DNA of 64,000 nucleotides from an uncultured Pelagibacteraceae bacterium (GCA_902554325.1 CACDOH010000001.1:68135-132134); one strand, 5' to 3'. Shown: positions 33,959 to 64,000, counted from the first letter of the stretch. The notes: generated by a model not told the origin, from the sequence alone. Numbers and translations are program-made.

Positions 33959-34011
33959 AATAATTATGTTAAAATTTTATAAATACAAATCAATAAAAAT
34001 ATAAAGTTTAT

Positions 34012-34824: not shown

Positions 34825-34849
34825 GAACTAAATTATTTTATGTAATATA

Positions 34850-35164: not shown

Positions 35165-35247
35165 ATAAATTCTCCATTAATTAATTTTAGTATGACAATA
35201 AATCAATTTAGATTATATATGTCAATACGAATTTTTGACAACTAGAT

Positions 35248-35868: not shown

Positions 35869-35869
35869 A

Positions 35870-37610: not shown

Positions 37611-37633
37611 CAATTACTGCAAATATCTTTTTA

Positions 37634-38911
37634 TTATGAATTAGATTGGTTTATTGGGTAGACTTTCTGTAAATAAAAACCAACTGGCAAATAATAAATA
37701 ATATTGATCCAATTATTGAATAAGTTTTGGGATGGAAAAAATGGCCACAAAGTTAAAAGGAAGCATGCAATCAGAGCTATCTCATAGTCAGTGAGTGTAT
37801 TTTTAGATAAAATAATTTTATTATAAAGATGCACTAATATTTTTTGAGATAGGTAAATCAATAAAAATAAGATGAAACCTAATCCGACTATTCCTATTTC
37901 TGATAAGGCTTGAATATAGTTATTATGAGGGTGCGTACTACAACTGTTATCATTGAATTTATATTTATGATTACTACACAATACTCTGTAAAGTTTTGGC
38001 CCATGACCAAATAGAGGCTTATCTTTAAACATATTTATCGCAGTCATAATTAATGGATGGTGCCCCGGACTAAAGATTACATTTGTATTATCAACTTCAT
38101 CATTTGAGGGATTAGTAATTTTGCTTGTCATTTGATTAATAGTACCTTCAATATTTCTCTCTCTAATATCTGGAGATAAAATAGTAATGATACTTATAAT
38201 TATTATAGAAACAATTAATGCAAATAATCTTAATAACTTGTATTCATTAATTACGAGAATTAAAAATATTGAAGCAAGAGTTAAGAGACCAAATGAGGTT
38301 CTTTCACCTGAAAGATAGACAAGGGTGTCTATAAATATAAAAGTGAAAAATAAATAAATGAGTTTTAATCTCGTGTTATTGAATGAATAAATCACAACTG
38401 CAAATAATAGTGGGAAGACTCGTGCTAAAAAGCTTCCTAAGGTTAAATTGTCGTTAAATGTTAATGACATTCTTGTACCGGGACTTTCAAAGCCAAATAT
38501 ATTGTTGCTATTATTAAAATATTGATAATAACCATCTGTAATTGCAATCAATAAAGTGATTATTAGAAATAAAGAAAATTCTCTAATAAAATTCTTTTTA
38601 TTTACTATCAGAAACCAAGTAGCTAATGCAAAAAGTCCAAACCTAAAGTAGAACAGTGAGCTTTCAAGTGATAAATAGGGATTTTCAGAAAAAAAAGATC
38701 TTAAAATAAGGTAAATATAAAAGAGTAAAAAGAATTTTGAAAAATTATTATTATAATATAACCAGTCTTTTTCCTTTATGGAATAAAATAAAAAAATTAA
38801 AATTATTAAAAGTAATATGATCTCTGGAATAAGGGGGCCAGTTAATAAACTAATCGGTAGTAAATAATATATAGTTGATGAAAAATTTATTAATAATTTT
38901 TTATCAATCAT
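37634..38911 (-). CDS. O-antigen ligase family (Wzy_C domain) membrane protein: WaaL- or PglL-type
   Basis: 425 aa with ~10-12 TM helices. Periplasmic loop carries 'HPHNNYIQALSEIGIVG', typical of WaaL/PglL/PilO. Confidence 0.75.
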   Translation of the reverse strand: MIDKKLLINFSSTIYYLLPISLLTGPLIPEIILLLIILIFLFYSIKEKDWLYYNNNFSKFFLLFYIYLILRSFFSENPYLSLESSLFYFRFGLFALATWFLIVNKKNFIREFSLFLIITLLIAITDGYYQYFNNSNNIFGFESPGTRMSLTFNDNLTLGSFLARVFPLLFAVVIYSFNNTRLKLIYLFFTFIFIDTLVYLSGERTSFGLLTLASIFLILVINEYKLLRLFALIVSIIIISIITILSPDIRERNIEGTINQMTSKITNPSNDEVDNTNVIFSPGHHPLIMTAINMFKDKPLFGHGPKLYRVLCSNHKYKFNDNSCSTHPHNNYIQALSEIGIVGLGFILFLLIYLSQKILVHLYNKIILSKNTLTDYEIALIACFLLTLWPFFPSQNLFNNWINIIYYLPVGFYLQKVYPINQSNS

Positions 38912-38914
38912 TTA

Positions 38915-39433
38915 TTAAATAGATTTTTTTTCGAGAAGTTTTATTTTTTTTTTCCAATTTTTATATTTTCCCCAGTCATCTTGACTAATGATATAGCCTA
39001 TACATTTTTTTGATCCACACTCACAAATGTGATCAGTGAAATCTTCTTTGTCAAATTCATATCCATAGTCGTATGTAAATTCTTCACCTATTTTTATTTT
39101 CTTTATAGAAGAAATCCATATCTTCCCTTTTATAATATCTACCTCACAATTAGGATTGCATGAATGATTTATAAAGCGAGCTTTATTGTATGAATATGAA
39201 CCATCGATATCGTATCTTGAATTAAGCTCAAAAATATATACTGATCCTGTTTCTTTAGAATTTAAGTATTTTTTTATTCTTCTTTCTGACCTTTTATCTC
39301 CTTCTTTTTTTGTAACTTTTTGACCAATATACTCAATAATTCTTGTACCTTTTGCAATATTTTGTGTTGCAAATACACCCGTGCCGTGAATTTTTGAGGT
39401 CTTTACCATCCATATCTTTTTATTATTCTGCAT
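38915..39433 (-). CDS. SET-domain protein-lysine methyltransferase
   Basis: 172 aa. 'GTGVFA', 'RFINHSCNPNC', 'EEFTYDYGYEF' and post-SET 'CECGSKKCIG'. Confidence 0.85.
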   Translation of the reverse strand: MQNNKKIWMVKTSKIHGTGVFATQNIAKGTRIIEYIGQKVTKKEGDKRSERRIKKYLNSKETGSVYIFELNSRYDIDGSYSYNKARFINHSCNPNCEVDIIKGKIWISSIKKIKIGEEFTYDYGYEFDKEDFTDHICECGSKKCIGYIISQDDWGKYKNWKKKIKLLEKKSI

Positions 39434-39581
39434 ATTAAACTATTTAGAGAGAATTTTATTGTAAGAATTTTATTTAATTTATATATTTTTAAGTATATTT
39501 CTAGTCATAATATAAAAGATTTATTGATAAAAATAATTATTTAAAAAAAAAATTTAAGAAATAAAAAATAAGAGCTGTATA

Positions 39582-40745
39582 ATGAAAATTGCTTGTATAG
39601 GAGCTGGATATGTTGGTTTTTCGCTATCAGTTCTGCTATCTAAATATCATTCATTAAAAATTTATGATGTCGACAGTAAGAAAACTAAATTAATTAATAA
39701 TAATCTTTCACCCATTCAAGATAAAGAAATAAGTAAATATATAAAAAATAATAAAACAAATTATATAGCATGCGACTCACTGAATGAAGCAATATTTAAT
39801 GCAGAGTACATTATAATTGCAACACCAACTGACTATAATGAAAAAACAAATGCATTTGATACGTCCTCAGTAATACAATCATTAAAAACAATTATACGTT
39901 CAAAAAGTAAAGCAAATATTATAATAAAATCAACAGTGCCTGTAGGTTTTACAGAAAGAATGAAACAAAAACTTAAATATAAAAAGATATTTTTTTCTCC
40001 TGAATTCTTAAGAGAAGGTATTTCTTTGTCAGATAATATGAATCCCTCTAGGATAGTTATAGGGTCGACAATGCAGGAAGGCAAAAAATTTGGGAAATTG
40101 CTCCAACAAATATGTAAAAATAAAGCTCAAGTACTTTATATGAGTTCTAGTGAAGCAGAGGCAGTAAAATTATTTTCAAATAGCTTTTTGGCAATGAGAA
40201 TTGCTTTTTTTAATGAACTTGATAGCTTTTCCATTGCAAACAATATTGAAACAAAAAAAATCATAAAGGGTGTTTCTCTTGATCATAGAATTGGTGACTA
40301 CTACAATAATCCATCATTTGGGTATGGAGGGTATTGTTTGCCCAAAGATACAAAACAATTACTCTCTAATTATGAGAAAGTTCCAAATAATATTATTAGA
40401 GCAATAGTTGATGCTAACAGAACAAGAAAAGACTTTGTATCAGATCATATTTTGTCTTTAAAGCCAAAAAATATTGGAATCTATAGATTAACAATGAAAA
40501 ATAAATCTTCAAATATAAAATCAAGCGCAATACAAGGGATTATGAAAAGAATTAAATCAAAAGGAATAAAGATAACTATTTATGAACCTTTGATTAATGC
40601 AAAAAAATTCTTCAATTCAAAAATAGAAAAAGACTTAAAAAAATTTAAACAAGAATGTGACCTTATTATTGCAAATAGAAATCATAGAGATTTAAATTCT
40701 GTTAAAGAAAAAGTATATACGAGAGACTTATTTAGAATTAATTAA
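39582..40745 (+). CDS. ugd: UDP-glucose 6-dehydrogenase
   Basis: 387 aa. 'MKIACIGAGYVG', 'FSPEFLREG' and 'GYGGYCLPKD' catalytic Cys. Confidence 0.85.
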   Translation: MKIACIGAGYVGFSLSVLLSKYHSLKIYDVDSKKTKLINNNLSPIQDKEISKYIKNNKTNYIACDSLNEAIFNAEYIIIATPTDYNEKTNAFDTSSVIQSLKTIIRSKSKANIIIKSTVPVGFTERMKQKLKYKKIFFSPEFLREGISLSDNMNPSRIVIGSTMQEGKKFGKLLQQICKNKAQVLYMSSSEAEAVKLFSNSFLAMRIAFFNELDSFSIANNIETKKIIKGVSLDHRIGDYYNNPSFGYGGYCLPKDTKQLLSNYEKVPNNIIRAIVDANRTRKDFVSDHILSLKPKNIGIYRLTMKNKSSNIKSSAIQGIMKRIKSKGIKITIYEPLINAKKFFNSKIEKDLKKFKQECDLIIANRNHRDLNSVKEKVYTRDLFRIN

Positions 40746-42579
40746 ATCTATTCAATAATCTTTTGATTGTTATCTCGTCCTCAATTTCCATAGATTTTAA
40801 AAGATTTTGATACAATAAGTCTAAATCAACTTTATCAATGAGTTCTAGCTTATCTTTAAAAATGCTTCCGTGCTCAGTATTAGAAAGATTATTATTAACA
40901 GATAATTCTTCGGTTATTTTTTCATAACTAGAAATACCAGTTATTTTTATTTCAATATCACCTTCAGGATTTTCATTATTTTTTTCACTTAAGCCTGAAA
41001 GACGAATAAGTCTTCGAGCTAGATCGATAATTTTAATTGGGCTTCCCATGTCTAATACGAAAATAGAACAATCATTTGACAACTCTGTAGATTGAAGAAT
41101 TAAATTTACTGCCTCAGTAATTGACATAAAATATCTTTCTACATCTTTACTGGTTACAGTAACAGGGCCTCCCATACTAATTTGCTGATTAAAAAGTGGA
41201 ATTACAGACCCAGAAGAGTTAAATACATTTCCGAATCTAACAATAGAAAATTTTGGACAAGTTAATTTCTTTTCTGAAAGGTCATTATAAACAGATTGTA
41301 TATATAATTCAGCAAGTCTTTTGCTGCAGCCCATTATTGTCTTAGGATTTACCGCTTTATCAGTAGATACAAAACAAAACCTTTCAATATTTCTCTCAGT
41401 AGCTATATCAACTAAATTTTTTGTCCCATAGAAATTATTTTCAACAGCCTCAAAAATATTTTCTTCAAGAATTGAAACATGCTTATATGCAGCTGCATGA
41501 AAAACATAATCTGGTTTATGTATTTTGAAAATACGTTCTAATTTTTTCTTATCCTTAATATTAACAAGCAGTGAACTAATAATTGTATCTTTATTATGTG
41601 CATCGTTTAAGTTGCTAATCTCTTTATTAATTGAATATAAGTTATATTCAGAATTATCCAACATTATCAATTTATTACAATCACTTGCGTAAATTTGCCT
41701 AACTAACTCAGATCCAATAGTACCACCAGCACCTGTGACAAGAATTTTTTTATTTTTAAAAAGATATTTAATATTAGTACCCCTCATTTTTTTTCTATTT
41801 ACTAGGTCTTCTAATGACAGAGGTTCTGAATAACTGCTTCTTAAATAGGCTTCTGTAATATTTTCTAGATTCGGAATTAACCTTATTCTCAAGTTATACT
41901 TTTCAAGTGATCTAATTATATTTCGTTTCGTATTTAAATCGTATTTATCTGAAATAATTACCTCATTAGGTGAATATTTTTTTATTAATGTATCTAGGTG
42001 CTTTGTATGTTTAATTGGCACGGTACTAATACTACTTTTATGATATTTTGAATCATCATCAATAAAAAATACAATTCGATTTAACTTCGTATTATTTAGT
42101 AAATTAAATAAATTTACTGAATTTTCAGTCACTCCATATAAAAAAATTGAGCTAGCTAAATGATTAGAATTTTCTCTAGATATATATGAAATGAAAGCCA
42201 ATCTAGAAATAATAACCATCATAAAAAATGATAGCGACTGAAATAATATAATTTGCCACTTAAGTAGATTGAATTCAATAATTTTAAGAAATATTAAGTT
42301 TAAAACTAAATATATAAAAAATGCATAGAGTATATTAACGATATTGTTAAAACTAAAATATCTAAATACTTGCTTATACAAACTAAAAATTGTGAATGAG
42401 ATAATAAAATTAATTATAAAAAATGAAAACACTACAATAATGTAAGGATTAAAGAATATAGATATTTCAAAGTACATGAGTACAGCAAAAGAAGTTGCAA
42501 TAATTGAAAGGACTACATCAAATGTTATCGCTAATAACTTTTTTTGTAATCTTGACAATGAATTAATAACGTTTTTCAT
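40738..42579 (-). CDS. Membrane-anchored polysaccharide biosynthesis protein CapD/WbpM/PglF type (UDP-HexNAc 4,6-dehydratase)
   Basis: 613 aa. Four N-terminal TM helices, 'ILVTGAGGTIGSEL' and 'FHAAAYKHV' SDR motifs. Confidence 0.88.
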   Translation of the reverse strand: MKNVINSLSRLQKKLLAITFDVVLSIIATSFAVLMYFEISIFFNPYIIVVFSFFIINFIISFTIFSLYKQVFRYFSFNNIVNILYAFFIYLVLNLIFLKIIEFNLLKWQIILFQSLSFFMMVIISRLAFISYISRENSNHLASSIFLYGVTENSVNLFNLLNNTKLNRIVFFIDDDSKYHKSSISTVPIKHTKHLDTLIKKYSPNEVIISDKYDLNTKRNIIRSLEKYNLRIRLIPNLENITEAYLRSSYSEPLSLEDLVNRKKMRGTNIKYLFKNKKILVTGAGGTIGSELVRQIYASDCNKLIMLDNSEYNLYSINKEISNLNDAHNKDTIISSLLVNIKDKKKLERIFKIHKPDYVFHAAAYKHVSILEENIFEAVENNFYGTKNLVDIATERNIERFCFVSTDKAVNPKTIMGCSKRLAELYIQSVYNDLSEKKLTCPKFSIVRFGNVFNSSGSVIPLFNQQISMGGPVTVTSKDVERYFMSITEAVNLILQSTELSNDCSIFVLDMGSPIKIIDLARRLIRLSGLSEKNNENPEGDIEIKITGISSYEKITEELSVNNNLSNTEHGSIFKDKLELIDKVDLDLLYQNLLKSMEIEDEITIKRLLNRFN

Positions 42580-43140
42580 TTAGTGTTTGATATCAGAATT
42601 TTTAATAATTTTAAAAAAAGTTAAAAATAAAATATAAATGTCAAATTTTATTGATCTTCTCTTAATGTATTCAATATCTAACTCAACTTTCTCTTTAATA
42701 TTTAAGCTATCTCTTCCATTAACTTGTGCCCAACCAGTAATACCTGGCTTTATTTTATGTACATTAAATTTTGTTCTCAAAATTATTAAATCATTTTGAT
42801 TGAATAATGCCGGTCTAGGTCCCACTAAAGCAAGATCTCCTTTAATGATCGAAATAAGCTGAGGCAATTCGTCAAGACTGTACCTTCTTAAAAAAGAACC
42901 ACAAGGGGAAAATTTTAGATTTTTTTCATTAATTAAATGTGTAGCTAGCAAAGGAGTATCTTTAGCGAGAGTTCTAAATTTTGGCATTTTAAAAATTTTA
43001 TTATTCATTCCAATCCTATCAGACCAGAAAATAGGGGAGCCCTTTGTGGTTATGAAAACAAAAATATATATTAAAATGATAGGAGCTGTTAATATTAGAA
43101 CCAAAAAGATTACAAGTAATATTTCTATAAATTTATTCAT
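42580..43140 (-). CDS. Small (PglC/WbpL-like) undecaprenyl-phosphate sugar-phosphate transferase
   Basis: 186 aa. One re-entrant helix, 'KMPKFRTL', 'SLDELPQL.N...G.L.LVGPRP' and 'KPGITGWAQVNGR'. Confidence 0.88.
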   Translation of the reverse strand: MNKFIEILLVIFLVLILTAPIILIYIFVFITTKGSPIFWSDRIGMNNKIFKMPKFRTLAKDTPLLATHLINEKNLKFSPCGSFLRRYSLDELPQLISIIKGDLALVGPRPALFNQNDLIILRTKFNVHKIKPGITGWAQVNGRDSLNIKEKVELDIEYIKRRSIKFDIYILFLTFFKIIKNSDIKH

Positions 43141-43144
43141 TAAT

Positions 43145-44272
43145 TCATATTTTATATAAATTTAGTTGTTTTGAATTAATCATATTAATATCAAATACTT
43201 TTTCAGAAAATATTCTTGCTTCTTTTCCCATCTTTATTCGCATATCTCTATTCAATATTAATAATTCAATCTTATCTACAAGATCATTAACATCATATAA
43301 TTCAACTAATAAACCCGTTTGATTAACCTTTATTGATTCATTACAACCTGCAACATTAGTTACAATACATGGCCTACCACATGCTGAAGCTTCTAAGATT
43401 GCTTTAGGCATACCTTCTCTATAGCTTGGTAAAACAATAATATGTGACTTGTGATAAATTGATAATGTGTCTTCAACGTGACCTCTCCAATTTATGATTT
43501 TTTTATTATTCCATTCATTTAATTTTTGAATAGGTATGGAACTAGGATTATGTCTATCAGGATCACCGTAGAGATTAAATTCAATACCAATATACTTTTT
43601 TTTTAGAATAATAGCTGCTTCAACAAACTCTCTAATACCCTTGTCATAAATCATTCTAGCAACTAATGATATATTTAAATTACCTTCAGATTCTCTTACA
43701 GGATAAAAATATTTTGTGTTTACCCCTGATCCTTTAATTAAAACTACATTTTTTCTTTTTAATTTTTTTCTTATAAAATTATTTACTATTTTTTGATCAT
43801 TACTATTTTGAACTATTATGAAAGAATCTTTTCTATTTATTGCTAAATTAAAGGAGATTGATAGGATTTTTCTTGCAATTTTGTTAATTAAATTTTTCTT
43901 TATGAATATGTAACCTAGGCCTGAAACAGCTAAGATTATTTTTTTTACACCAAGAAAATTAGCTAGAAACCCACAAATGATATTATTTTTATTTGAAACT
44001 GAATGAATAATATCAGGCTTAATTTTTAAAACGGTAGTTACAAAAGAAAAAACAGCAAAAATATCTTTTAAAATATTAAAACCTCTACTCAAATTACTCT
44101 CGTAAATTACAATACCTTCATTTTCAATGTATTTTTTGTAGTCTGTTATATTTGTCATTAAATGAACCTCGTAACCCTCAGATAATGCTTTTTTCGCAAG
44201 CTCTAATCTATGTGATAAGAAGCCCCTATCAGTATTCACATAATACAATAAAACGTACTTTCTTTCTTTCAT
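43145..44272 (-). CDS. Glycosyltransferase family 4
   Basis: 375 aa. C-terminal 'LPSYREGMPKAILEASACGRPCIVT' EX7E-type motif. Confidence 0.8.
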   Translation of the reverse strand: MKERKYVLLYYVNTDRGFLSHRLELAKKALSEGYEVHLMTNITDYKKYIENEGIVIYESNLSRGFNILKDIFAVFSFVTTVLKIKPDIIHSVSNKNNIICGFLANFLGVKKIILAVSGLGYIFIKKNLINKIARKILSISFNLAINRKDSFIIVQNSNDQKIVNNFIRKKLKRKNVVLIKGSGVNTKYFYPVRESEGNLNISLVARMIYDKGIREFVEAAIILKKKYIGIEFNLYGDPDRHNPSSIPIQKLNEWNNKKIINWRGHVEDTLSIYHKSHIIVLPSYREGMPKAILEASACGRPCIVTNVAGCNESIKVNQTGLLVELYDVNDLVDKIELLILNRDMRIKMGKEARIFSEKVFDINMINSKQLNLYKI

Positions 44273-44319
44273 AGCTAATTCAATTTAAATATCAGTTTAT
44301 TTAATAATAATTAAACTAT

Positions 44320-45615
44320 TTATAGTTGCGAAATTTTAACATTATTTTTTTTAGCATCAACGACACTTAAATTTGATTGAATATCGTAAAGTATGCCAGA
44401 GGTATTCAAAAGTTTTTTGTATTTTAAAATTTTATATTTTTTTAATTCTTTATGAGATACGCCATAAATTATTGCATCCGAATCATTTGGAAGTTCATTC
44501 CATTTATAAAGCTTTATTTTGTGAGAACGGTAAATATCTTCTTTATTAATGTAAGGATCATAAGCGAATATATTAATATTATAAGATCTTAAATAATTAT
44601 ACACTTCTATCATTTTAGAATTTCTTATATCTGATACGTTTTCCTTGAATGTAAGTCCTAAAATTATAATTTTTGACTCGCTAAATTTAAGATTGTTTTT
44701 TGCTAGCTCATTAACTACTTTACTCGCTACGTGGAGGGGCATTCTGTCATTAATTTTTCTTCCAGATTGGATTACCTCTGTATGAATACCCAGCTCAGAA
44801 GCTTTATAAACCAAATAATAAGGATCTACTCCTATGCAATGTCCACCAACTAGACCAGGCTTAAAGCGCTGAAAATTCCATTTTGTTGAAGCCGCTTCTA
44901 ATACTTGTGAGGTATTTATGCCCATCTTTTCAAAAATCAAAGAAAGCTCATTCATCAAAGCAATATTTATATCTCTTTGGGTATTTTCAATTACCTTGGC
45001 TGCTTCAGCAACTTTAATACTTTCAGCTTCATATACTCCCACTTTGATTATTTTTTTGTAGATTTTAGAAATTATTTGTAAAGTACTTGGTGTGTCTCCT
45101 GATACTACTTTAATAATATTAGTCAGGGTTTTCTTTTTATCTCCTGGATTTATTCTTTCCGGGCTGTAACCCACAAAAAAATCTTTCTTCCATTTAAACT
45201 TTGAGGATTTTTCTAATAGTGGTACACATACTTCCTCAGTCACGCCAGGATATACGGTAGACTCATACACTACAATGCATTTCTTTTTCATTACTTTTCC
45301 AACCAATAAAGAACTATTTTGTAAATAACTTAGATCAGGTTTTCTAGATTTATCTATTGGAGTGGGAACGGTAATTATAATTATATTTGCTTTTGAGAGT
45401 GTCTTTGAAGAGTTTGTAAAAGTTAAATTCTTTGATTTATAAAATTCTTTTGAAGCAACCTCTTTATTTGGATCAAGCTTTTTCTTATAACTACTTATTT
45501 TAGTTTTAGCTAAATCAAATCCGATTGTTTGAAAATATTTACCAAATTCAATCGCAAGGGGTAGTCCTACATACCCTAGTCCAACAATTGCAATTTTGAT
45601 TTTTGCTTTCATCAT
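44320..45615 (-). CDS. UDP-N-acetyl-hexosamine 6-dehydrogenase (TviB/WbpO/CapL family)
   Basis: 431 aa. 'IAIVGLGYVGLPLAIEFGK', 'YSPERINPGD' and 'GLVGGHCIGVDPYY'. Confidence 0.88.
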   Translation of the reverse strand: MMKAKIKIAIVGLGYVGLPLAIEFGKYFQTIGFDLAKTKISSYKKKLDPNKEVASKEFYKSKNLTFTNSSKTLSKANIIIITVPTPIDKSRKPDLSYLQNSSLLVGKVMKKKCIVVYESTVYPGVTEEVCVPLLEKSSKFKWKKDFFVGYSPERINPGDKKKTLTNIIKVVSGDTPSTLQIISKIYKKIIKVGVYEAESIKVAEAAKVIENTQRDINIALMNELSLIFEKMGINTSQVLEAASTKWNFQRFKPGLVGGHCIGVDPYYLVYKASELGIHTEVIQSGRKINDRMPLHVASKVVNELAKNNLKFSESKIIILGLTFKENVSDIRNSKMIEVYNYLRSYNINIFAYDPYINKEDIYRSHKIKLYKWNELPNDSDAIIYGVSHKELKKYKILKYKKLLNTSGILYDIQSNLSVVDAKKNNVKISQL

Positions 45616-45618
45616 TTT

Positions 45619-47520: not shown

Positions 47521-47535
47521 AACTTTTAATAATCT

Positions 47536-53696: not shown

Positions 53697-53706
53697 TTAT
53701 TGTCGC

Positions 53707-54675: not shown

Positions 54676-54680
54676 TTTAT

Positions 54681-55745: not shown

Positions 55746-56823
55746 ATATATTTTTAATATCAGTTTTTTTTAAATCTATTGAAGATGGCAACCACAATCC
55801 TTCTTTCGCTATCATTTCTGAAATTGGAAAATCCCCTCTACATTTATATATTTTCTGAGAATTAATTGATGGATACATTAATCTTGTATTTATGTTAAAA
55901 TTCTTAAGATACTTAACTAAATTTGTTCTATTTTTAGCAATAATCTCTACAAACCACGGTGCAGTATCCTTTAGAGGGTTATCTAATATTTGAATGTTTT
56001 TATTACACATTAGAAATTGTTTATATTTTCGAAAAATCATTTTCTTCTTAGAAATTCTAACTCTAATTTTTTTCATTTGCTCTATTCCAATTACAGCTTG
56101 AATATCGGTAAATTTAAAATTGAAGCCAAAAAAATCATGAACATCATTTCCTCCACTTCTTCTGCCAAAATCCTTTAGAAGCATAATCTTTTTTGCTAGT
56201 TTACTGCTATTAGTTACAATAGCTCCTCCCTGCCCAGTACTAATAATCTTAGCAGGCGAAAATGAAAAAGATCCAATATCTCCTTCAGTCCCCATATGGC
56301 TACCATTAGGATAAAATGAACCTAATGATTGCGCAGAATCTTCAATTAAAAAAATTTTTTTCTTCTTACATAAATTTCTTAATTTACTAATATCATATGA
56401 TGGATAGCGTCCATTTGCAGATACTAATACTATAGCTTTTGTTTTTTTTGTAATACTTGAAACAACCTTGTTATAATCTAAACATAAAGTTTTTTCTTCA
56501 ACGTCAACTAAAACAATTTTTGCACCCAATAACCTGAAGGCGTTAGGCGTTGCTATCATTGTAAAATTAGGAACAATAATTTCATCTCCATTTCCAATTC
56601 CACAAGCAAGACCTGCAACTAAAAGACTTACCGAGCCATTATTGACTAAAAAGCAGTATTTTGAACCTGTATAATTTCTAATCATACTTTCTAACTCTCT
56701 TGTTTTTTTGAACTCTGTAACCCAACCGCCTTCTTTCATATATTTGTTTAAAGCTACTCTCTCTTCCTTTCCAAAACTAGGTTCAAACTGTGAAATTGAT
56801 TTATATTTAATATTTTTTTTCAT
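55711..56823 (-). CDS. DegT/DnrJ/EryC1/StrS-family PLP sugar aminotransferase
   Basis: 370 aa. 'EDSAQSLG' and 'FSFSPAKIISTGQGGAI' (PLP-Lys). Confidence 0.88.
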   Translation of the reverse strand: MKKNIKYKSISQFEPSFGKEERVALNKYMKEGGWVTEFKKTRELESMIRNYTGSKYCFLVNNGSVSLLVAGLACGIGNGDEIIVPNFTMIATPNAFRLLGAKIVLVDVEEKTLCLDYNKVVSSITKKTKAIVLVSANGRYPSYDISKLRNLCKKKKIFLIEDSAQSLGSFYPNGSHMGTEGDIGSFSFSPAKIISTGQGGAIVTNSSKLAKKIMLLKDFGRRSGGNDVHDFFGFNFKFTDIQAVIGIEQMKKIRVRISKKKMIFRKYKQFLMCNKNIQILDNPLKDTAPWFVEIIAKNRTNLVKYLKNFNINTRLMYPSINSQKIYKCRGDFPISEMIAKEGLWLPSSIDLKKTDIKNICERINDFYYKQ

Positions 56824-56830
56824 ATTTTTA

Positions 56831-57376
56831 TTACTTTATTGCTGAAATATTTAAACTAATCAATATACCATCTTGATCTAGATGAGGTACGTATGCTTTA
56901 CTATAATCATCAAACTCTTCTCCAAATTCTTCTAATGGATTAAATTTCTCAATATTTTTAAAGTTTATACTTTCTAATAAATTCTTAAGTAATTTAAAAT
57001 CATAAGCTGTTTTATGATAAATAAAGTCGCCATTATCTAGAGACCATTTACCATATAAAGGTCCTAATATGCCTCTATGATTAAGATCATTATATTTTAA
57101 GTACACTTTTACTATTGACTCAAAGTTTGGGACAGCAAGTAACAGAGTGCCGCCAATTTTTAATACTCTTCTCCACTCAGTCAAAACTAAGACCGCTTCC
57201 TCCTGATTAAAATATTCTAACGTATGAGAAGAATATATTTTATCTACGGAGCCGTTTTCAAACATAGATAAATTTTTAACATCACATTTATAATCTATGT
57301 GTGGTCCATCATTAACATCAATATGTAGATAATCTTTTAAATACTTTTCACCACAACCTAAGTGAATTTTTATCAT
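56831..57376 (-). CDS. Class I SAM-dependent methyltransferase (Methyltransf_11-like)
   Basis: 181 aa. 'IHLGCGEKYL', 'VDKIYSSHTLEYF' and 'LKIGGTLLLAVP'. Confidence 0.7.
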   Translation of the reverse strand: MIKIHLGCGEKYLKDYLHIDVNDGPHIDYKCDVKNLSMFENGSVDKIYSSHTLEYFNQEEAVLVLTEWRRVLKIGGTLLLAVPNFESIVKVYLKYNDLNHRGILGPLYGKWSLDNGDFIYHKTAYDFKLLKNLLESINFKNIEKFNPLEEFGEEFDDYSKAYVPHLDQDGILISLNISAIK

Positions 57377-57377
57377 A

Positions 57378-57776
57378 TTAAAATTTCTTCTTATCTTTAT
57401 CTACATCGGTAAATGGGCCATTTTTTGACTCAATTATTTTAGTATTATTTTCTAAAATTTCATATCCATGCCCACCATAGGCAAATACAGCTAGGTCACC
57501 CTCATATAATACAAACTCATCAAAAAAATTTTGTTCTTCATCAAATAATGTAACCTTCATGGATCCTGATTTCACATAAGTCATTTCCATTGTACGGTTT
57601 GCAATTCTTTGAAATTCGTTATGTAAATGAGAATCAAGAATTTTTCCTTTTTGATACCACCAGGATCCAACTTGTATACTAAGTTCATTGGGTGTAATAA
57701 AATTTAAACCTTCCTTCCAATCATTATTCCTATAAATAATACTAAATATTTTGTTGTCTTTTTTTATTATCTGCAC
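57378..57776 (-). CDS. Small cupin protein (FdtA/WxcM-sized; candidate sugar ketoisomerase)
   Basis: 132 aa. Cupin-like 'DSHLHNEF' and 'GGHGYEI' motifs. Its stop abuts the next gene's start. Confidence 0.5.
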   Translation of the reverse strand: MQIIKKDNKIFSIIYRNNDWKEGLNFITPNELSIQVGSWWYQKGKILDSHLHNEFQRIANRTMEMTYVKSGSMKVTLFDEEQNFFDEFVLYEGDLAVFAYGGHGYEILENNTKIIESKNGPFTDVDKDKKKF

Positions 57777-58313
57777 TCACTTATCCCTGTCATTTAGTAT
57801 TGGATCATCAATTAACCAATCAATTTCTAATCTACTGTCATTCCATTTTACTACAAATTGATCTTCTACATCAAAATATTCTCCTATGTATGCTAATTTA
57901 TAATGATAAACTACATCATCACTTAAAGCGCAGTATCCATTCGCAAAATTAGGTGGAACAAGAATTACTGTTTGATTTTTATCATTAATTATAAATGATT
58001 CCCATTGCAGGTAAGTTTCTGACTCAGGCCTAAAGTCAACTACTACTTGTTGTATTTCTCCATAAACACAGGTAACCAGTTTCCATGTTTTAACATCCCC
58101 GTGTAAGCCCCTTAGAACATTTTTCTTTGAGCAGGAAAATTTATCGTGTATAAATTCTAAATCCTCAGGAAGATAATTTTTAAATTTTTCTTTTAAATAA
58201 GTAGTATAAATTGAACCTCGAAAATCATTGTAAACTGATAACTTAAATGCATGTAAGTCAGCAATTTTGTTTGGTTTTATAAGCTCTAGATCGCTAGATT
58301 GATCAAAAGACAT
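57777..58313 (-). CDS. RmlC-like NDP-4-keto-6-deoxy-sugar 3,5-epimerase
   Basis: 178 aa. 'D.RGS...TY', 'LRGLHGD' and 'PPNFANGYCALSD' follow the dTDP-4-dehydrorhamnose epimerase pattern. Confidence 0.75.
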   Translation of the reverse strand: MSFDQSSDLELIKPNKIADLHAFKLSVYNDFRGSIYTTYLKEKFKNYLPEDLEFIHDKFSCSKKNVLRGLHGDVKTWKLVTCVYGEIQQVVVDFRPESETYLQWESFIINDKNQTVILVPPNFANGYCALSDDVVYHYKLAYIGEYFDVEDQFVVKWNDSRLEIDWLIDDPILNDRDK

Positions 58314-58319
58314 ATTTTT

Positions 58320-59345
58320 TTATAAATTTTGTTTTATTTTTTCAAGATCTGATTTAACCATAATTGAAACTAAATCTTTAAATTTTGTTTTTGCTTCCCA
58401 ACCTAAGACTTTTTTGGATTTTGAAGGATCTCCTAATAAATAATCTACCTCAAGTGGTCTATAATAGTAAGGGTCAATCTTAATAATTTCTTTGTTTGTT
58501 TTTTTATCAACACCACACTCATCAATACCACTATTCTTCCAAATTACTTCAATCTCTACCTCCTTGAATGCGGCCTCAATAAACTCTCTAACTGAATGCA
58601 TTTCTCCCGTGGCAAGAATGTAGTCATCTGGTTTATCTTGTTGCAACATCTTCCACATTCCTTCAACATATTCAGGTGCGTATCCCCAATCTCTCTTTGC
58701 TTCCAAATTTCCTATATAAAGGACTTCTTCAATGCCTAATTTAATTTTAACTGCTGCAGTTGAAATTTTTTTAGTAACAAAAGACTCACCTCTTCGTGGA
58801 GATTCATGATTAAACAGTATGCCGTTTGTAGCATGTATATTGTAAGCATCTCGATAAGTAACAATAGACCAGTATGAAAATAATTTTGAAACAGCATATG
58901 GAGACCGAGGATTAAATGGTGTCTTTTCAGTTTGAGGAGATTCCAAAACTTTTCCGTAAAGTTCACTTGTGGAGGCTTGATAAAATTTAGAATTAATCCC
59001 AGTAGATTTGATTGCATCAAGAAACTTTAGTGTTCCAAGAGCATCAACATGGGTGGTATACTCTGGGATATCAAACGATACTCTAACATCACTTTGCGCA
59101 GCTAGATTGTAGATTTCGCTTGGCTCAACTTTTTCAAGAATTCTATTAAGGTTACTTGTATCTGTGATATCTCCATAATATGTCTTCAAATCATGATTGT
59201 TTATTATTTGAGATATTCTTGAGGTATTTAATGAACTGCTTCTTCTAATAATGCCATGTACTTCATAATTTTTTGAAAGAAGAAACTCGGCTAAATATGA
59301 ACCGTCTTGACCTGTAATACCAGTTATAAGCGCTTTTTTCTTCAT
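58320..59345 (-). CDS. gmd: GDP-mannose 4,6-dehydratase
   Basis: 341 aa. '[19 protein letters not shown]', '[12 protein letters not shown]' and '[20 protein letters not shown]'. Confidence 0.9.
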
Positions 59346-59375
59346 CTTAATATCTTATAGCACTATAACAAAAAT

Positions 59376-60044
59376 TTAATCAATCTTTTTTAGAATAATG
59401 AAGTAGCCAGTATTGATGTATAATTTACTTTTAGAAGAAAATCTATCGAGGAACCTAAATAAAAAACTAAAAATTAATAGAAGTCTAGATAAAAAAAAAC
59501 TCCCATTTAGATGAAAACTTGTTCTCAATAAATCGTATATTACTGAACTGGTTCCTCCCATTCTTATAAACTTTTCCAATTTTAAATTATAACTTTTAAA
59601 AGTTCTTTTTAAGAATGACTCTGTATATCTAATCTTATCAATATCTGCGTCTCCATGTATCGAATGAATTAATGGAACACTGATTATCATATAAGAATTA
59701 ATTTTTAATATTCTTGAAGCCTCTTTTAATACTTGATTTATATCTTCTACATATTCTAATAATTCCAACATCAATACTGTATCTACAGAACAATCCTTCA
59801 ATGGTAAATTATTAGCATCTGCTAAAATGTCAGGGTTAGATGAAGCATTATTATTTAAATATTGCCAAGTTAAAAATGTACAATCCTTATTAGAAAAAGA
59901 CCCACGCGGATTTTTTTTTATGCCACCAATGTCGATAACATTTCCCTTAATATAATTTTTACTTTGAAACAGTAATTTGTCTAAAATTCTCCTTCTTTCA
60001 CTGCCGTTATCAAAAAAAATCATAAAATTCTTCTTTGTTATCAT
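59376..60044 (-). CDS. Class I SAM-dependent methyltransferase
   Basis: 222 aa. 'VIDIGG' and 'DCSVDTVLMLELLEYVED' motifs. Confidence 0.65.
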   Translation of the reverse strand: MITKKNFMIFFDNGSERRRILDKLLFQSKNYIKGNVIDIGGIKKNPRGSFSNKDCTFLTWQYLNNNASSNPDILADANNLPLKDCSVDTVLMLELLEYVEDINQVLKEASRILKINSYMIISVPLIHSIHGDADIDKIRYTESFLKRTFKSYNLKLEKFIRMGGTSSVIYDLLRTSFHLNGSFFLSRLLLIFSFLFRFLDRFSSKSKLYINTGYFIILKKID

Positions 60045-60726
60045 CTAATATTTTTTTTAGCCATTTAACGCCATACAGTTTTATTTCTCTATCATGAAAA
60101 CAAACTTGATTCTTAGAATCGATAATTTTTAAATTATATTCATGTTTGATAGCATTATCTGCATTAATATATTTTATTCCGTTTTGATATGCTGCTTTGA
60201 TAGTTTTAAGACAATATACATTTCCAGGAGGAATTAGTATATTAACATCCTCTTCAAGCCAATCATCAAGAATTTGTTTTCCTTTTCTTATGTTTTCAAA
60301 ATGGAGTTCAAATGGAAGATAATCCCAAAATTCTCTATGATATTTTCTGTTTGAAGTAAATAATCTTGGTTTATGCTTTCCTACTATGCAATGTGTTAAC
60401 CCATGGAGGGCTACTTTAAATGAACCTTCTTTTACTTTATTTTTAATAAACATTGCCTCTTTAGGAAATTTAATTGGAAAAGGGGTTAGATTGGAATCTT
60501 TGTCTACCCAACAAGCAGTTACACCTATCAATAATTTTGCATTATACTTATTGATCAATAAAGATATATTTTTCCAGTCTTCTAAGGATAACTCAGAATA
60601 TTTTCCCCAAGCTTTGAAGTGTCGTAAATATTTAAGAAATAAAAAGTTTCCAAAACCAAAGTACTTTTTAGAATAAATTTCAAATTCTTTACTACTGGCA
60701 CCAATATCATCTATTCTTAATAACAT
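60010..60726 (-). CDS. Polysaccharide deacetylase-like (DUF2334-type) protein
   Basis: 238 aa. 'LLRIDDIG' start and 'ALHGLTH' motif resemble the divergent NodB/DUF2334 fold. Tentative. Confidence 0.5.
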   Translation of the reverse strand: MLLRIDDIGASSKEFEIYSKKYFGFGNFLFLKYLRHFKAWGKYSELSLEDWKNISLLINKYNAKLLIGVTACWVDKDSNLTPFPIKFPKEAMFIKNKVKEGSFKVALHGLTHCIVGKHKPRLFTSNRKYHREFWDYLPFELHFENIRKGKQILDDWLEEDVNILIPPGNVYCLKTIKAAYQNGIKYINADNAIKHEYNLKIIDSKNQVCFHDREIKLYGVKWLKKILDDNKEEFYDFF

Positions 60727-60742
60727 ACTAAATCATACTTGT

Positions 60743-62611
60743 TTATAATGATAATCTTGATGATATTTTATTTTCATCCTCGTACTCTTTGCTTAAAAAA
60801 TTATAAATATTCGAAGAACCAATTAAATAATCGTGTGTTCCTGAACTTTCAATTTTCCCATTGTGCATAACAATGATTTGATCAAAATTCTTTATATTTT
60901 CTATTTTATGTGTGATAAAAATTATGCTTCTTTTTCTATTTAAAAATAACTTATTTAGTATCTCTTTTTCGTTTTGATTATCTAGGGAGCTCGTAGCTTC
61001 ATCAAGAACAAGTATTTCGGGGTCAAGAAGAATTGCTCTTGCAATTGCAAGCCGTTGTAATTGTCCTACAGATAATTTAATTCCATTTTCACCAATTCTG
61101 GTATGCTCTTTATTTTCACTGTCATTTATAAAATTTCCACTATTAGATAGATTTACTGCCTCATCAAATTGTGCTTGAGAAAAATCATCCCTGAATAAAG
61201 TAATATTATTATAGATTGTGTCATCAAAGAAAAGATTCTTTTGAGTGACTACACCAAACAGTTTTCTATAAGACTTATCTTCATAATCTTGTAAATTATT
61301 ACCATTTAATTTAATTGTACCTTTAAATTCATCGTGATTTTTAATAAGCAAATCAATAAGAGTAGATTTACCACTCCCACTCAGACCTACAATAGCAACT
61401 TTCTTTAAATCTAAATTAATTGCAATATTAATATCTTTTAAAATCTTTTTATCTCCATATGAAAATTCCAAGTTCTCGATTTTAAAATCTTTAATAGAGC
61501 CTAACCTTAAGCCTTTTTCTGGTTTATTAATGTTTGATTGAATTAAAAATGTCTTAAAAATAGCATCGTATGATGAATTAATTTTTGTTAACTGAGTAAA
61601 AATTTTACTAAAATTATTCAACGGATTTAGAAATATTTTACCTACAACTACATACATCACTGCACCTTGTGGACTAATAGAGCCATTAAAAATAGCTAAA
61701 GAAGATGCAGCAACAATAATAATAAGTGATAAATTATCTATAAATCCTTTCAATGGACTTTCTATGCTACTTATGAAGTTAAATTTTCTATCGGCATTTT
61801 TATAATTATCTATATTTGTCTTTATTTTATGCAAAAATTTCTGTTTTATGCCATAGGTAAAAATAATTTTTATATTTGAAAATATTTCATAAAATTTACT
61901 ACTTAATTCTGCATTAGAAGTGAATATTGCTTTGTTGGTTGCTTTAATAGGCCTAATGAGAATTGCTGTAGCAATATAGTATATTAAACCAATTAATATA
62001 CACACCAAACTTATATACAAACTTGTATTAACTAGATATAGAAAGTAAAAAATTAATAAAAAAGTATTTTTTAACGCTTCGCTCGAAACGTGGCCTATAC
62101 CATAGGCTGTAATATTCGCATCGTTTAATACTCGAGCTACTGAATCCCCAGATGATTTGTTATTAAAAAAATTAAGATTGAATGAAAAATATTTATTAAA
62201 TAAATTATATCTGATCTTTGAAGATAATTCTGTCGTATATAAAATTTTAAAAATACCAGCAATATAATCAAATAAATTAGACAGGAACACAAGTAATAAA
62301 AAAAGTCCAAGAAATAAAACTACGGTATTTTCAATAGGCAAAGCTTCTAAATAAAATATGCTATTTAAATAATCTAATACTATCAATCCTGCATTATTTA
62401 AATCAAAAATATTTCCATTATTATTTTGACTTGTAGAAAAATCGTTAAATGAAAAGTTGGAGTAATCAATAAATAAGGTTATTACTGTTGCTAATATAGC
62501 TGGCTGTAGAACAGCAAAAATAGATGATACTATTTGAATACCACTTATTAACGCGATATATTTTTTATAAGGCCAGAAATATTTTTTAATAAGGTCTTTT
62601 AATTTTTCCAT
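60743..62611 (-). CDS. Fused TMD-NBD ABC exporter (MsbA/PglK-like)
   Basis: 622 aa. Six-TM N-terminal half, Walker A 'GLSGSGKST', signature 'LSVGQLQRLAIARA' and Walker B 'ILVLDEATSSLD'. Confidence 0.9.
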   Translation of the reverse strand: MEKLKDLIKKYFWPYKKYIALISGIQIVSSIFAVLQPAILATVITLFIDYSNFSFNDFSTSQNNNGNIFDLNNAGLIVLDYLNSIFYLEALPIENTVVLFLGLFLLLVFLSNLFDYIAGIFKILYTTELSSKIRYNLFNKYFSFNLNFFNNKSSGDSVARVLNDANITAYGIGHVSSEALKNTFLLIFYFLYLVNTSLYISLVCILIGLIYYIATAILIRPIKATNKAIFTSNAELSSKFYEIFSNIKIIFTYGIKQKFLHKIKTNIDNYKNADRKFNFISSIESPLKGFIDNLSLIIIVAASSLAIFNGSISPQGAVMYVVVGKIFLNPLNNFSKIFTQLTKINSSYDAIFKTFLIQSNINKPEKGLRLGSIKDFKIENLEFSYGDKKILKDINIAINLDLKKVAIVGLSGSGKSTLIDLLIKNHDEFKGTIKLNGNNLQDYEDKSYRKLFGVVTQKNLFFDDTIYNNITLFRDDFSQAQFDEAVNLSNSGNFINDSENKEHTRIGENGIKLSVGQLQRLAIARAILLDPEILVLDEATSSLDNQNEKEILNKLFLNRKRSIIFITHKIENIKNFDQIIVMHNGKIESSGTHDYLIGSSNIYNFLSKEYEDENKISSRLSL

Positions 62612-62629
62612 AAACTACATACAAGATAT

Positions 62630-63460
62630 CTATGTGCTTTTTACAAAATATTTTTTATAATCTTTGTCGGGGTTAAAGCCAAAATCGGAACGTGGCAAGT
62701 TTTTGCCAGGTCTATAATAATTTGTAATAGAATGTCTATCTCCATCTTCAGCTGGAGATATACCGCAGTGAACACCCCAGGTGTCAAATAATATAAGAGC
62801 ACCCTTATTTGCAGTTATTTTTACCCAATTATTAATTAAGGGACCCAGTTCATTTCTAGTAAAATTAGTTGGATGAGGCTTAAAAGTATTATCAAAATCA
62901 TCTCCTACACTTGGCCCCCAATCAAATTCTTTTTTTCTTCTTAATTCAGTGTCTTTATGAGTACCAATAATATATGAATTAGGCCCATCATTAGAATTAA
63001 CATCATTTAAATACATCATTGCCTTGAACGTTGATGTTTCAAAAGTGTCAATATGGAATCCTCTTACTGGTATATGATAAAATTGATGTCTTTCATAAAC
63101 CTGAACATGGACTGAATATTCATTATTATTATTGTAGTATGCTTTTGCAATATTTTTTAAAAATTCGTCATTCTTAAGTATTGCTGCTTCATAATTAAAG
63201 CAATCAACATGGAAAACTCTTTTGTTTGCCGCTGCGCCTGTATTCTTATACACGTCAAATCTTCTGTAAGATCCATCTGGATAGTTTAGGTCCTCATCAA
63301 CTTCAGCTCTTTCAATGCATGATCGTCTAATCGAATCACACTTTTCTTGATCATAATAGTTCTCAATGAGACAAATTCCATTATCTCTCAAACATCCCAA
63401 AATTTTTTTTGTATCTTTTGGCTGTGTAATGGTATTTATTAGTTGATGGTTTTTACTCAT
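62630..63460 (-). CDS. PhyH-like Fe(II)/2-oxoglutarate dioxygenase
   Basis: Start re-assigned to ATG 63460 (MSKNHQ...). 'GFHIDTF' (HxD) and a distal 'WGVHCG' His. TAATG overlap with the upstream gene. Confidence 0.6.
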   Translation of the reverse strand: MSKNHQLINTITQPKDTKKILGCLRDNGICLIENYYDQEKCDSIRRSCIERAEVDEDLNYPDGSYRRFDVYKNTGAAANKRVFHVDCFNYEAAILKNDEFLKNIAKAYYNNNNEYSVHVQVYERHQFYHIPVRGFHIDTFETSTFKAMMYLNDVNSNDGPNSYIIGTHKDTELRRKKEFDWGPSVGDDFDNTFKPHPTNFTRNELGPLINNWVKITANKGALILFDTWGVHCGISPAEDGDRHSITNYYRPGKNLPRSDFGFNPDKDYKKYFVKST

Positions 63461-64000
63461 TACTGGGTCTCCCACAGTGCTTCAGCTATCTTAAAATCAT
63501 CTTCAGTATCAACATCTAATAATTCAATTTTGTTTGATACCTCATAAAATTGCACTTCTTCCCAGTCCCAATATCTTCCGTTTTCAAAAAAGTATTTCTT
63601 TTCAAAGAAATACATTGCATTGGCGAATTCATAAATTGGTTTTGTTTTTTTTGTATTAAGTGTTTTTAAATTTAAAGAAAAGTTAATCGGTAATTTGTCT
63701 TTATTAAAAAAATAATTATTTTTTTTAGAAATTACAGTTGCAGGTTTAAAGTTATTTTTTTTTATAAAATCTAAAAATTTTTTTATTGTACTAATCTTTA
63801 AATGTGGAAGGCACCCATTAATTAATAATAAATAATCATAATCAACTTCTTTTATAAAAGAAATACACTCGGTAATTGGGCCATCAATCTTTGTAGATTT
63901 TTCTGACCTTCTAATAAATTTAACATTTTTTTTAATGCATTTTTCACGAAATACATCCTCAAAGCCTCCAAAAAAACTTTGATCATTAAAATTCGATAAT
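63460..64000 (-). CDS. Cytidylyltransferase (CMP-sugar synthetase/CTP_transf_3-like), 5'-truncated by the window edge (not in the ORF track)
   Basis: Hand translation ends ...LLLINGCLPHLK...YEFANAMYFFEKKYF...ELLDVDTEDDFKIAEALWETQ*. The C-terminal 'D.DT.EDF..AE' is typical of the family. Confidence 0.6.
   Translation of the reverse strand, partial: LSNFNDQSFFGGFEDVFREKCIKKNVKFIRRSEKSTKIDGPITECISFIKEVDYDYLLLINGCLPHLKISTIKKFLDFIKKNNFKPATVISKKNNYFFNKDKLPINFSLNLKTLNTKKTKPIYEFANAMYFFEKKYFFENGRYWDWEEVQFYEVSNKIELLDVDTEDDFKIAEALWETQ

Follow-up and report, generated by a model that had tools for sequence, protein, structure and literature searches.

Genes downstream of trhO

In this study, we analyzed a 64,000-nt stretch of DNA (one strand, hereafter the window) from an uncultured Pelagibacteraceae bacterium (GCA_902554325.1, CACDOH010000001.1:68135-132134), in which a dense block of putative cell-surface glycan genes begins directly after the trhO gene and runs off the window's end. 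Positions 1 to 37,610 are treated here as the core part and positions 37,611 to 64,000 as the island part; because the last open reading frame (ORF) runs off the window end, the island size of >26 kb is a lower bound. The window is assigned to a Pelagibacteraceae (SAR11) bacterium, the label that related loci also carry. Genes were assigned by Pfam and NCBIfam profile searches, with scores compared to curated cutoffs. The island comprises 24 complete minus-strand ORFs between 37,634 and 63,475, one ORF that the window end truncates, and a single plus-strand gene, ugd, whose end overlaps the following dehydratase gene by 8 nt. Spacing is tight throughout, with many overlaps of 1 to 35 nt, and at the junction itself the convergent trhO (plus strand) and Wzy_C ligase (minus strand) genes have their ends 23 nt apart. 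The features are as follows (HexNAc, N-acetylhexosamine; GT, glycosyltransferase).

33,870-37,610: divergent syntenic flank with an inositol-monophosphatase paralogue, SCP2, HhH-GPD glycosylase, acyltransferase and trhO (Pfam)
36,696-37,610, plus: trhO-like gene, UPF0176_N plus rhodanese domains (Pfam); the final gene common to every relative of the lineage
37,634-38,911, minus: glycan ligase of the Wzy_C family, resembling WaaL or O-oligosaccharyltransferases (PF04932, 64.6 bits; cutoff, 31.7)
38,915-39,433, minus: SET-domain protein (PF00856, 89.5 bits)
39,582-40,745, plus: Ugd, UDP-glucose 6-dehydrogenase (Pfam; TIGR03026, 312 bits, above cutoff)
40,738-42,579, minus: PglF/WbpM/CapD-like UDP-HexNAc 4,6-dehydratase, membrane anchored (Polysacc_synt_2, 342 bits)
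42,580-43,140, minus: small polyprenyl-phosphate sugar-phosphate transferase, predicted priming enzyme (Bac_transf PF02397, 173.8 bits)
43,145-44,272, minus: GT4 glycosyltransferase (Pfam)
44,320-45,615, minus: TviB/WbpO-like UDP-HexNAc C6 dehydrogenase (NF011729, 430 bits, below its cutoff of 592; TIGR03026, 391 bits, above cutoff)
45,619-47,520, minus: AsnB-type glutamine amidotransferase, candidate uronamide-forming enzyme, WbpS/WbqG-like (Asn_synthase, 334 bits)
47,536-48,732, 48,671-49,762 and 49,759-50,985, all minus: three consecutive GT4 glycosyltransferases (Pfam)
50,850-51,815, minus: polytopic membrane protein of 321 aa, divergent EpsG/Wzy-like polymerase candidate (transitive homology)
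51,812-52,603, minus: Methyltransf_24, sugar O-methyltransferase-like (Pfam; weak rhamnosyl O-methyltransferase match)
52,596-53,696, minus: GT4 glycosyltransferase (Pfam)
53,707-54,675, minus: second GMD-family short-chain dehydrogenase (TIGR01472, 307 bits, below the cutoff of 415)
54,681-55,745, minus: putative GT-B-fold glycosyltransferase of 354 aa from a small marine family (predicted fold only)
55,711-56,823, minus: DegT-family nucleotide-sugar aminotransferase (Pfam, NCBIfam)
56,831-57,376, minus: Methyltransf_11 methyltransferase (Pfam)
57,378-57,776, minus: small cupin-like protein, weakly similar to the WbuC family (TIGR04366, 27 bits against a cutoff of 42; weak cupin matches)
57,777-58,313, minus: GDP-4-keto-sugar C3/C5 epimerase (best PDB match, Campylobacter jejuni GDP-heptose 3,5-/3-epimerases)
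58,320-59,345, minus: Gmd, GDP-mannose 4,6-dehydratase (TIGR01472, 528 bits, above the cutoff of 415)
59,376-60,044, minus: Methyltransf_11 methyltransferase (Pfam)
60,010-60,726, minus: DUF2334, polysaccharide-deacetylase-like (Pfam; homologues also carry Polysacc_deac_1)
60,743-62,611, minus: ABC exporter of the MsbA/HepA/PglK (ABCB) type, with fused transmembrane and nucleotide-binding domains (Pfam, NCBIfam; below every equivalog cutoff)
62,630-63,475, minus: PhyH-like 2-oxoglutarate/Fe(II) dioxygenase (Pfam)
63,480-64,000, minus: CTP_transf_3 cytidylyltransferase, C-terminal 179 of 219 aa, cut by the window end (assigned via full-length homologues)

This inventory agrees well with the initial annotation, made from the sequence alone, which had listed about 24 codirectional, frequently overlapping genes (ugd being the one on the opposite strand) and had named a ligase, an initiating transferase, five or six GT4 enzymes, a polymerase-like protein, three or four methyltransferases, an ABC exporter and three nucleotide-sugar modules. 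We find the Wzy_C and Bac_transf proteins, five GT4 enzymes plus one GT-B protein recognized by fold only, a membrane protein linked to EpsG by transitive homology, three methyltransferases in addition to the SET-domain protein, the fused MsbA/PglK-type exporter and modules that point to UDP-, GDP- and probably CMP-sugars.

At the start of the block, the Wzy_C protein has about nine hydrophobic segments and no sequence match in PDB; its domain scores above the gathering cutoff and is common to WaaL, PglL/TfpM and Wzy. The PglF-like protein has its hydrophobic segments at the N terminus, with PseB and FnlA as best NCBIfam families, both below cutoff, and the priming transferase is a protein of 186 aa with a single hydrophobic segment. 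The AsnB-type gene adjoins the TviB/WbpO-like dehydrogenase gene, and its product exceeds the cutoff of TIGR01536 (455 bits), its best family being TIGR03108, eps_aminotran_1 (516.8 bits against a cutoff of 816.9), which is reported to contain the uronamide-forming enzymes WbpS and WbqG (PMC7468200).

Two proteins lack profile models and were placed by other means. The membrane protein at 50,850-51,815, with about 8 to 10 hydrophobic segments or peaks, some of them overlapping, has no direct Pfam or NCBIfam match; it has 40 representative clusters of relatives among 1.84e9 proteins, and 20 of 30 relatives match PF14897, EpsG (best E value, 3.6e-18). The ORF at 54,681-55,745, likewise without a Pfam or NCBIfam match, has 29 homologues among 5.8e9 clusters. 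Its AlphaFold2 model (pLDDT 83, pTM 0.80) contains two Rossmann-like domains, which can be superposed on GT-B enzymes of known structure, and the top matches of a Foldseek search against PDB are mostly GT-B glycosyltransferases (probability 1.0 and TM scores of 0.55 to 0.63 to GlgM, SPS, TreT, BshA and PimA, at ∼10% identity), so that, as modeled, this protein is a putative sixth GT-B transferase of the island. Two of the GT4 genes deserve comment. The homologue of the first (43,145-44,272) forms two ORFs in the relatives L004 (12,075-13,201) and L098 (886-2,012), which could reflect a frameshift or a pseudogene in a copy of this glycan variant (glycotype) or else an assembly error. The ORF at 49,759-50,985 as called shares 136 nt with the EpsG-like gene, and its product opens with a hydrophobic stretch; the true start is probably the internal methionine near 'MRILFIAPRF'.

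Among the proteins of the GDP-sugar module, the epimerase scores 191 bits to the C. jejuni GDP-heptose epimerases and ∼88 bits to dTDP-type RmlC, and we therefore reject its assignment as RmlC of a dTDP-rhamnose pathway. The second GMD-family protein is nearer in PDB to true GMDs (246 bits) than to the RMD reductase 2pk3 (125 bits), so that a role as an Rmd-type reductase is unsupported; on sequence grounds it could be a dehydratase or a 4-reductase. The DegT protein matches QdtB and perosamine synthase with near-equal scores, and action at C3 or at C4 would both fit. The cupin-like protein has no PDB match. Toward the window end, the ABC exporter is the sole candidate translocase seen in the window and has a PglK-like architecture without reaching the PglK equivalog score (NF050066, 152.6 bits against 1,000; MsbA TIGR02203, 272 against 602); as a fused protein it stands alone, with no separate Wzm permease and Wzt ATPase in the window. 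The truncated last ORF has no Pfam match when searched alone, and its full-length homologues, one of them at 99% identity, carry PF02348.

Edge, variability and exchange of the locus

The island differs from the core in composition, with a G+C content of 0.275 compared to 0.329 (a difference of 5.4 points), or, gene by gene, 0.279 in 25 island ORFs compared to 0.333 in 39 core ORFs (Mann-Whitney P = 1.4e-7). The initial annotation had placed this drop at the convergent trhO/ligase junction; the drop is real, but its edge lies upstream. The best single maximum-likelihood change point is at 33,870 (support, 33,600 to 33,940), with a log-likelihood ratio of 127 compared to a maximum of 35 among 200 block shuffles, which speaks against a uniform composition and means that the shift starts ∼3.7 kb ahead of the junction. 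The five syntenic genes between 34.0 and 37.6 kb already have a G+C content of 0.284, and trhO (0.251) is as AT rich as the island. The spot values quoted earlier for single lines (∼35 to 50% in the core, ∼17 to 25% in the island) were exaggerated, as the means over 60-nt lines are 0.33 and 0.275 and the 5 to 95% ranges overlap widely (0.20 to 0.45 and 0.17 to 0.40). From core to island, G+C falls from 0.435 to 0.349 at codon position 1, from 0.336 to 0.288 at position 2 and from 0.228 to 0.200 at position 3; the drop is thus mostly at positions 1 and 2, which points to a different amino acid usage of less constrained proteins as much as to foreign origin.

To place the locus among its relatives, we gathered metagenome contigs anchored on trhO and contigs encoding the window's exact SCP2 protein, and we counted arrangements by clustering the DNA downstream of trhO in 28 nonredundant related sequences that keep the common core up to that gene (an earlier subset held 20). 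In all contigs anchored on trhO or SCP2 the core order is kept: PntAB, hydrolase, FGase, L36, DUF1329, inositol monophosphatase, SCP2, HhH-GPD glycosylase, acyltransferase and trhO. After trhO come, almost always, SET and Wzy_C genes and often Wzz, PglF-like and priming-transferase genes in varying order, followed by unrelated cargo. This amounts to 12 arrangements in the 20 sequences and about 19 in the 28, counting as separate one contig (L103) that joined the window-type cluster only via a short segment of L003 (ligase plus SET, 68%) and differs in gene order. Gene content after trhO thus differs in most relatives, which makes the locus accessory. A gene order conserved in all relatives was not found: three relatives with ∼90% nucleotide identity to the window in the core (L095, L096 and L101) carry unrelated island cargo. 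All sister variants have a SAR11-like G+C content of 0.27 to 0.30.

The expected stop of core synteny near 37.6 kb holds for L001, a relative with 92 to 94% core identity whose homology to the window ends at 37,564; divergence, however, begins earlier, as identity to L001 falls to about 70% from 33.7 kb and divergence climbs toward the island. The trhO relatives found in reference genomes are L001 and L002, both Pelagibacteraceae single-cell genomes. The locus is hypervariable, as described, but the window-type island is not confined to one strain: it recurs on many contigs, at 65 to 99% identity and in different core backgrounds. Identity to the window's island is 88% in L004, 96% in L090, 99% in L084 and ∼65 to 70% in L085 and L092, which share its gene order across 20 kb.

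These recurrences reveal how the variants move. The metagenome contig L003 has 1 mismatch to the window in 4,312 nt (32,548 to 36,859) and 244 differences in the next 2,909 nt (8 to 9% divergent), placing a breakpoint at 36,860, inside trhO. In L002, identity switches from ∼75% in the core to ∼87% in the island at ∼35.8 kb. The window-type island is present in L003, L004/L098, L005 and L002, that is, in backgrounds with core identities of 100% (L003), ∼90% (L004) and ∼75% (L002), and its copies differ by ∼9 to 13% irrespective of whether the core differs by 0%, 10% or 25%. In this lineage the locus occupies a fixed site after trhO plus the SET gene; the cargo varies among relatives, and homologous recombination that breaks within the flanking core genes exchanges entire variants. 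The occurrence of one glycotype in core backgrounds that are 0 to 25% divergent supports a view of glycotypes as old alleles that are shared and move between lineages by this route. The divergent flank from 33,870 to 37,610 holds both the G+C change point and the recombination breakpoints, and the compositional and recombinational edge lies 1 to 4 kb before the end of trhO.

Within this flank, the inositol-monophosphatase-family gene at 34,012-34,815 (plus strand) sits just beyond the change point and is the second of two paralogues 11 kb apart (the first at 22,066-22,848, plus strand); it shows 64 to 71% amino acid identity where the core proteins of relatives show ∼80 to 100%. Next to it, the 104-aa SCP2-domain protein (34,850-35,164, minus strand) is 96 to 100% identical in relatives, compared to just 64 to 90% for its neighbors, and its exact sequence is recorded in 641 blocks of a public assembly collection: it is a strongly constrained small protein in a fast-diverging flank. 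An extra Gmd-like epimerase/dehydratase gene, 46 to 48% identical to the window's Gmd and absent from the window, lies between the acyltransferase gene and trhO in 11 related contigs, so that gene-content variation starts one gene before trhO.

On the island side, the SET gene adjoins trhO or the ligase gene in essentially every island variant and is present in 10 of 10 places among contigs with the exact SCP2 protein. The window type has the ligase gene in the middle, with trhO and SET on either side; the order in most variants is trhO-SET-ligase. The SET protein keeps 68 to 76% amino acid identity in relatives whose trhO is 53 to 63% identical. The SET gene is thus a conserved anchor in the island variants seen.

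A probable replacement island and its alternatives

Taken together, we read the block as the near end of a flexible genomic island of the replacement type, carried by SAR11 and encoding the synthesis of a cell-surface heteroglycan, a reading to which we give a probability of roughly 0.8. The sugars foreseen by the initial annotation look reasonable: an amidated hexuronate, from the TviB/WbpO-like dehydrogenase adjoining an AsnB-type enzyme of best family eps_aminotran_1; a methylated amino-deoxy sugar, from Gmd, the GDP-sugar epimerase, the DegT aminotransferase and the methyltransferases; and possibly a CMP-activated sugar, from the truncated CTP_transf_3 ORF and the NeuB carried just beyond it by related islands. 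Family assignments suggest the following route. The PglF-like dehydratase and the small phosphoglycosyl transferase would prime undecaprenyl phosphate with a 6-deoxy-HexNAc-type sugar, and the six GT-B transferases would extend the chain. Ugd would supply glucuronic acid to the UDP module, in which a HexNAc uronic acid may be amidated by the AsnB/WbpS-like enzyme; the GDP module (Gmd, C3/C5 epimerase, DegT, the second GMD-like protein and methyltransferases) could yield 6-deoxy, amino and methylated hexoses; and a cytidylyltransferase module probably starts at the window edge. The MsbA/PglK-type ABC half-transporter would then carry the lipid-linked product across the inner membrane, the EpsG/Wzy-like protein might polymerize it, and the Wzy_C ligase would attach it to lipid A-core or another acceptor.

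Relatives extend this picture past the window end. The next gene, seen in L084 (98.9% nucleotide identity), encodes a GT2 plus CTP_transf_3 fusion, which is also present at 99% identity on a 174.5-kb NCBI contig. Four related islands (L085 and L092 to L094), with the same gene order at ∼58 to 70% identity, continue with deacetylase, formyltransferase, NeuB, second AsnB, MptE-like, methyltransferase, another cytidylyltransferase and DegT genes, and NeuB plus a second cytidylyltransferase lie past the equivalent point in L083 and L092, which makes a nonulosonic-acid-type module beyond the window plausible. Homologue walks from the last ORFs and from the GT-B protein gave up to 10 kb more without meeting the far boundary, and the island is therefore well over 26 kb. 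Gene order also varies on a smaller scale: L083 (10,001 to 12,239), compared with window positions 60,010 to 64,000 (∼78 to 80% nucleotide identity), has CTP_transf_3, PhyH-like and DUF2334 genes in succession without an ABC gene, whereas in the window the exporter gene lies between the PhyH-like and DUF2334 genes; in L092 the PhyH-like and CTP_transf_3 genes are swapped. These differences are small-scale mosaicism inside one glycotype.

Several observations weigh against the replacement-island reading as formulated here. The proposed enzymology is all family based, with the matches to TviB, eps_aminotran_1, PglK, MsbA, RmlC and the second Gmd below the curated equivalog cutoffs. No Wzx (MOP-family) flippase or Wzz domain occurs among the ORFs of 37.6 to 64 kb, and neither Wzx-like nor Wzz proteins were found in the next 10 kb of related islands. 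A type IV ABC exporter paired with an EpsG-like polymerase is a noncanonical combination, and the absence of the ABC gene at the equivalent position of L083 makes its role in glycan export uncertain. Finally, a visible boundary on its own does not prove identity with the hypervariable region 2 (HVR2) of SAR11, which is flanked by rRNA genes, nor does it fix the total size.

This last point leads to a narrower version of the same idea, in which the locus is a relocated or second replacement locus of one Pelagibacteraceae lineage, anchored on trhO plus SET and distinct from the rRNA-split HVR2, which exports its glycan through the MsbA/PglK-type ABC protein and EpsG without Wzx and to which the two model-less families (the GT-B protein with its 29 relatives and the divergent EpsG-like protein) contribute. 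We regard this version as possible but doubtful.

An unlikely alternative is that the genes serve O-linked glycosylation of pilin or other surface proteins rather than lipopolysaccharide (LPS) or capsule synthesis, with the Wzy_C protein as a PglL/TfpM-type oligosaccharyltransferase and the Pgl-like parts building and flipping a short lipid-linked oligosaccharide. The PglF-like dehydratase, the small Bac_transf protein and the fused ABC exporter do resemble the logic of Campylobacter pgl, the window lacks Wzx and Wzz, and the Wzy_C protein has a single NCBIfam match, to the O-linking oligosaccharyltransferase TfpM (E value, 1.8e-4). That match is very weak, however, at 20.7 bits against a cutoff of 600; the window holds an EpsG/Wzy-like polymerase candidate, and Wzz-domain genes beside the ligase gene in four sister variants (L095, L097, L099 and L104) fit chain-length-regulated polymers. 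WaaL and PglL cannot be told apart by sequence alone.

Quite improbable, in our judgment, is that the block is foreign DNA from a phage or other mobile element integrated at a tRNA gene, with low G+C marking the donor, as in the two-ended phage-insertion model proposed for the Pelagibacter hypervariable region in a 2026 preprint. The depressed G+C content would agree with this model, as would the occurrence in other phyla of homologues (45 to 50%) of certain island genes, for example, the GT2-CTP_transf_3 fusion. However, Pfam detects no integrase, transposase or phage domain in any island ORF; there is no tRNA at the junction, the nearest one (tRNA-Val, 32,557-32,631) lying 5 kb inside the conserved core; and in a limited test neither the GT-B family nor the SET gene had relatives in IMG/VR contigs. 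Phage-mediated insertion is therefore unsupported here. The breakpoints fall within core genes, as homologous recombination predicts, codon positions 1 and 2 account for most of the G+C drop, and every sister variant shares the SAR11-like G+C content given above, all of which argue against a donor-marked insertion. That there is no island at all, merely a less constrained AT-rich stretch of conserved chromosome, would fit the modest compositional shift and its onset within syntenic genes but is refuted by the differing gene content after trhO in most relatives, some with ∼90% core identity.

Relation to known islands

Enterobacterial and Pseudomonas O-antigen clusters are low in G+C and operon-like. 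The island shares with such clusters a UDP-HexNAc 6-dehydrogenase gene beside that of an AsnB-family amidotransferase, a WbpM/PglF-like dehydratase, a priming transferase and GT4 enzymes; it differs in having no Wzx or Wzz in the window, in carrying a fused MsbA/PglK-type ABC protein in place of Wzx or Wzm/Wzt and in scores below the equivalog cutoffs. Uronamide modules are known as WbpO/WbpS in P. aeruginosa O6 and WbqG in Escherichia coli O121 (PMC7468200). With C. jejuni pgl and Helicobacter pylori Wzk, the island has in common the PglF-like dehydratase, a small PglC-like transferase and a fused ABC flippase-type protein, and the enzymes nearest to its epimerase are those of GDP-heptose modification in the C. 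jejuni capsule (PDB 8dco, 8db5 and 7m14). It departs from pgl in lacking PglB in the window, in a PglK score of 153 against a cutoff of 1,000 and in the presence of a Wzy_C ligase and an EpsG-like protein.

In gene content, composition and dynamics, the island is of one kind with HVR2 of SAR11. Like HVR2 (PMC2217521, PMC3448164, PMC7318151 and the preprint 'Pelagibacter, resolved'), the island carries the same clade label, a low G+C content and a glycosyltransferase-dominated cargo, together with nucleotide-sugar epimerases/dehydratases, DegT, GDP-mannose dehydratases, methyltransferases and an O-antigen ligase/polymerase-like protein; both vary in content among relatives, and there is evidence that homologous recombination spreads whole variants, the same recombination signature having been described for HVR2 in HTCC1062 compared to HTCC1002 (PMC2217521). 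HVR2 is an LPS O-chain island defined between the 16S-23S and 5S rRNA genes, whereas the visible boundary of the present island is trhO plus the SET gene, without rRNA: scans for rRNA genes were negative for the window and for the related loci covered, and no rRNA or tRNA gene lies at any island edge there. The replacement flexible genomic ('glycotype') islands of aquatic bacteria (Lopez-Perez et al. 2014, PMC4033161) likewise occupy a fixed position with equivalent function encoded by different genes, and they share with the window's island the occurrence of one cluster in different clonal frames and a change or peak of substitutions at the boundary that marks homologous recombination. We see no difference in kind from these islands; the window is a further instance, from a SAR11 lineage. 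Overall, the pattern matches published SAR11 HVR2 and replacement islands (PMC2217521, PMC3448164, PMC4033161, bioRxiv 10.64898/2026.04.03.716430).

The block is thus another instance of a well-known kind of island and adds conceptually little that is new. Its value lies in being a clean, annotated example in which breakpoints are resolved to the nucleotide, among them that at 36,860 against a background that is otherwise clonal, and in the leads that it offers, namely, the trhO/SET anchoring, a visible flank without rRNA and two small families of proteins that no profile model covers. Which phages can attack the ocean's most abundant bacteria is believed to depend mainly on glycan replacement islands. 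The susceptibility to phages and grazers that the initial annotation ascribed to the locus is drawn from this literature, as is the notion that selection is presumably phage driven and frequency dependent.

The surroundings of trhO vary more deeply between lineages. In distant SAR11-like contigs, where trhO is 42 to 45% identical and has sarcosine oxidase and FTHFS genes as neighbors, no glycan genes lie at trhO. In four such low-G+C contigs (L071, L073, L074 and L082), trhO stands between C1-metabolism genes (sarcosine oxidase subunits, FTHFS and MTHFR-like) and the TrcR-suhB-efp-gap-tkt block of the window in inverted orientation, which indicates that the surroundings of trhO, over ∼11 kb or more, have been rearranged between lineages.

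Glycan replacement islands are also thought to be the main reason for the poor assembly of SAR11 from metagenomes. Among the 10 long junction contigs, 7 (L098 to L104) stop on the core side, 2.4 to 3.8 kb from SCP2 (window ∼31.1 to 32.5 kb) and mostly just beyond rpmJ and tRNA-Val, and reach 40 to 50 kb into the island; the position of these ends fits assemblies that break in common core sequence rather than in the island.

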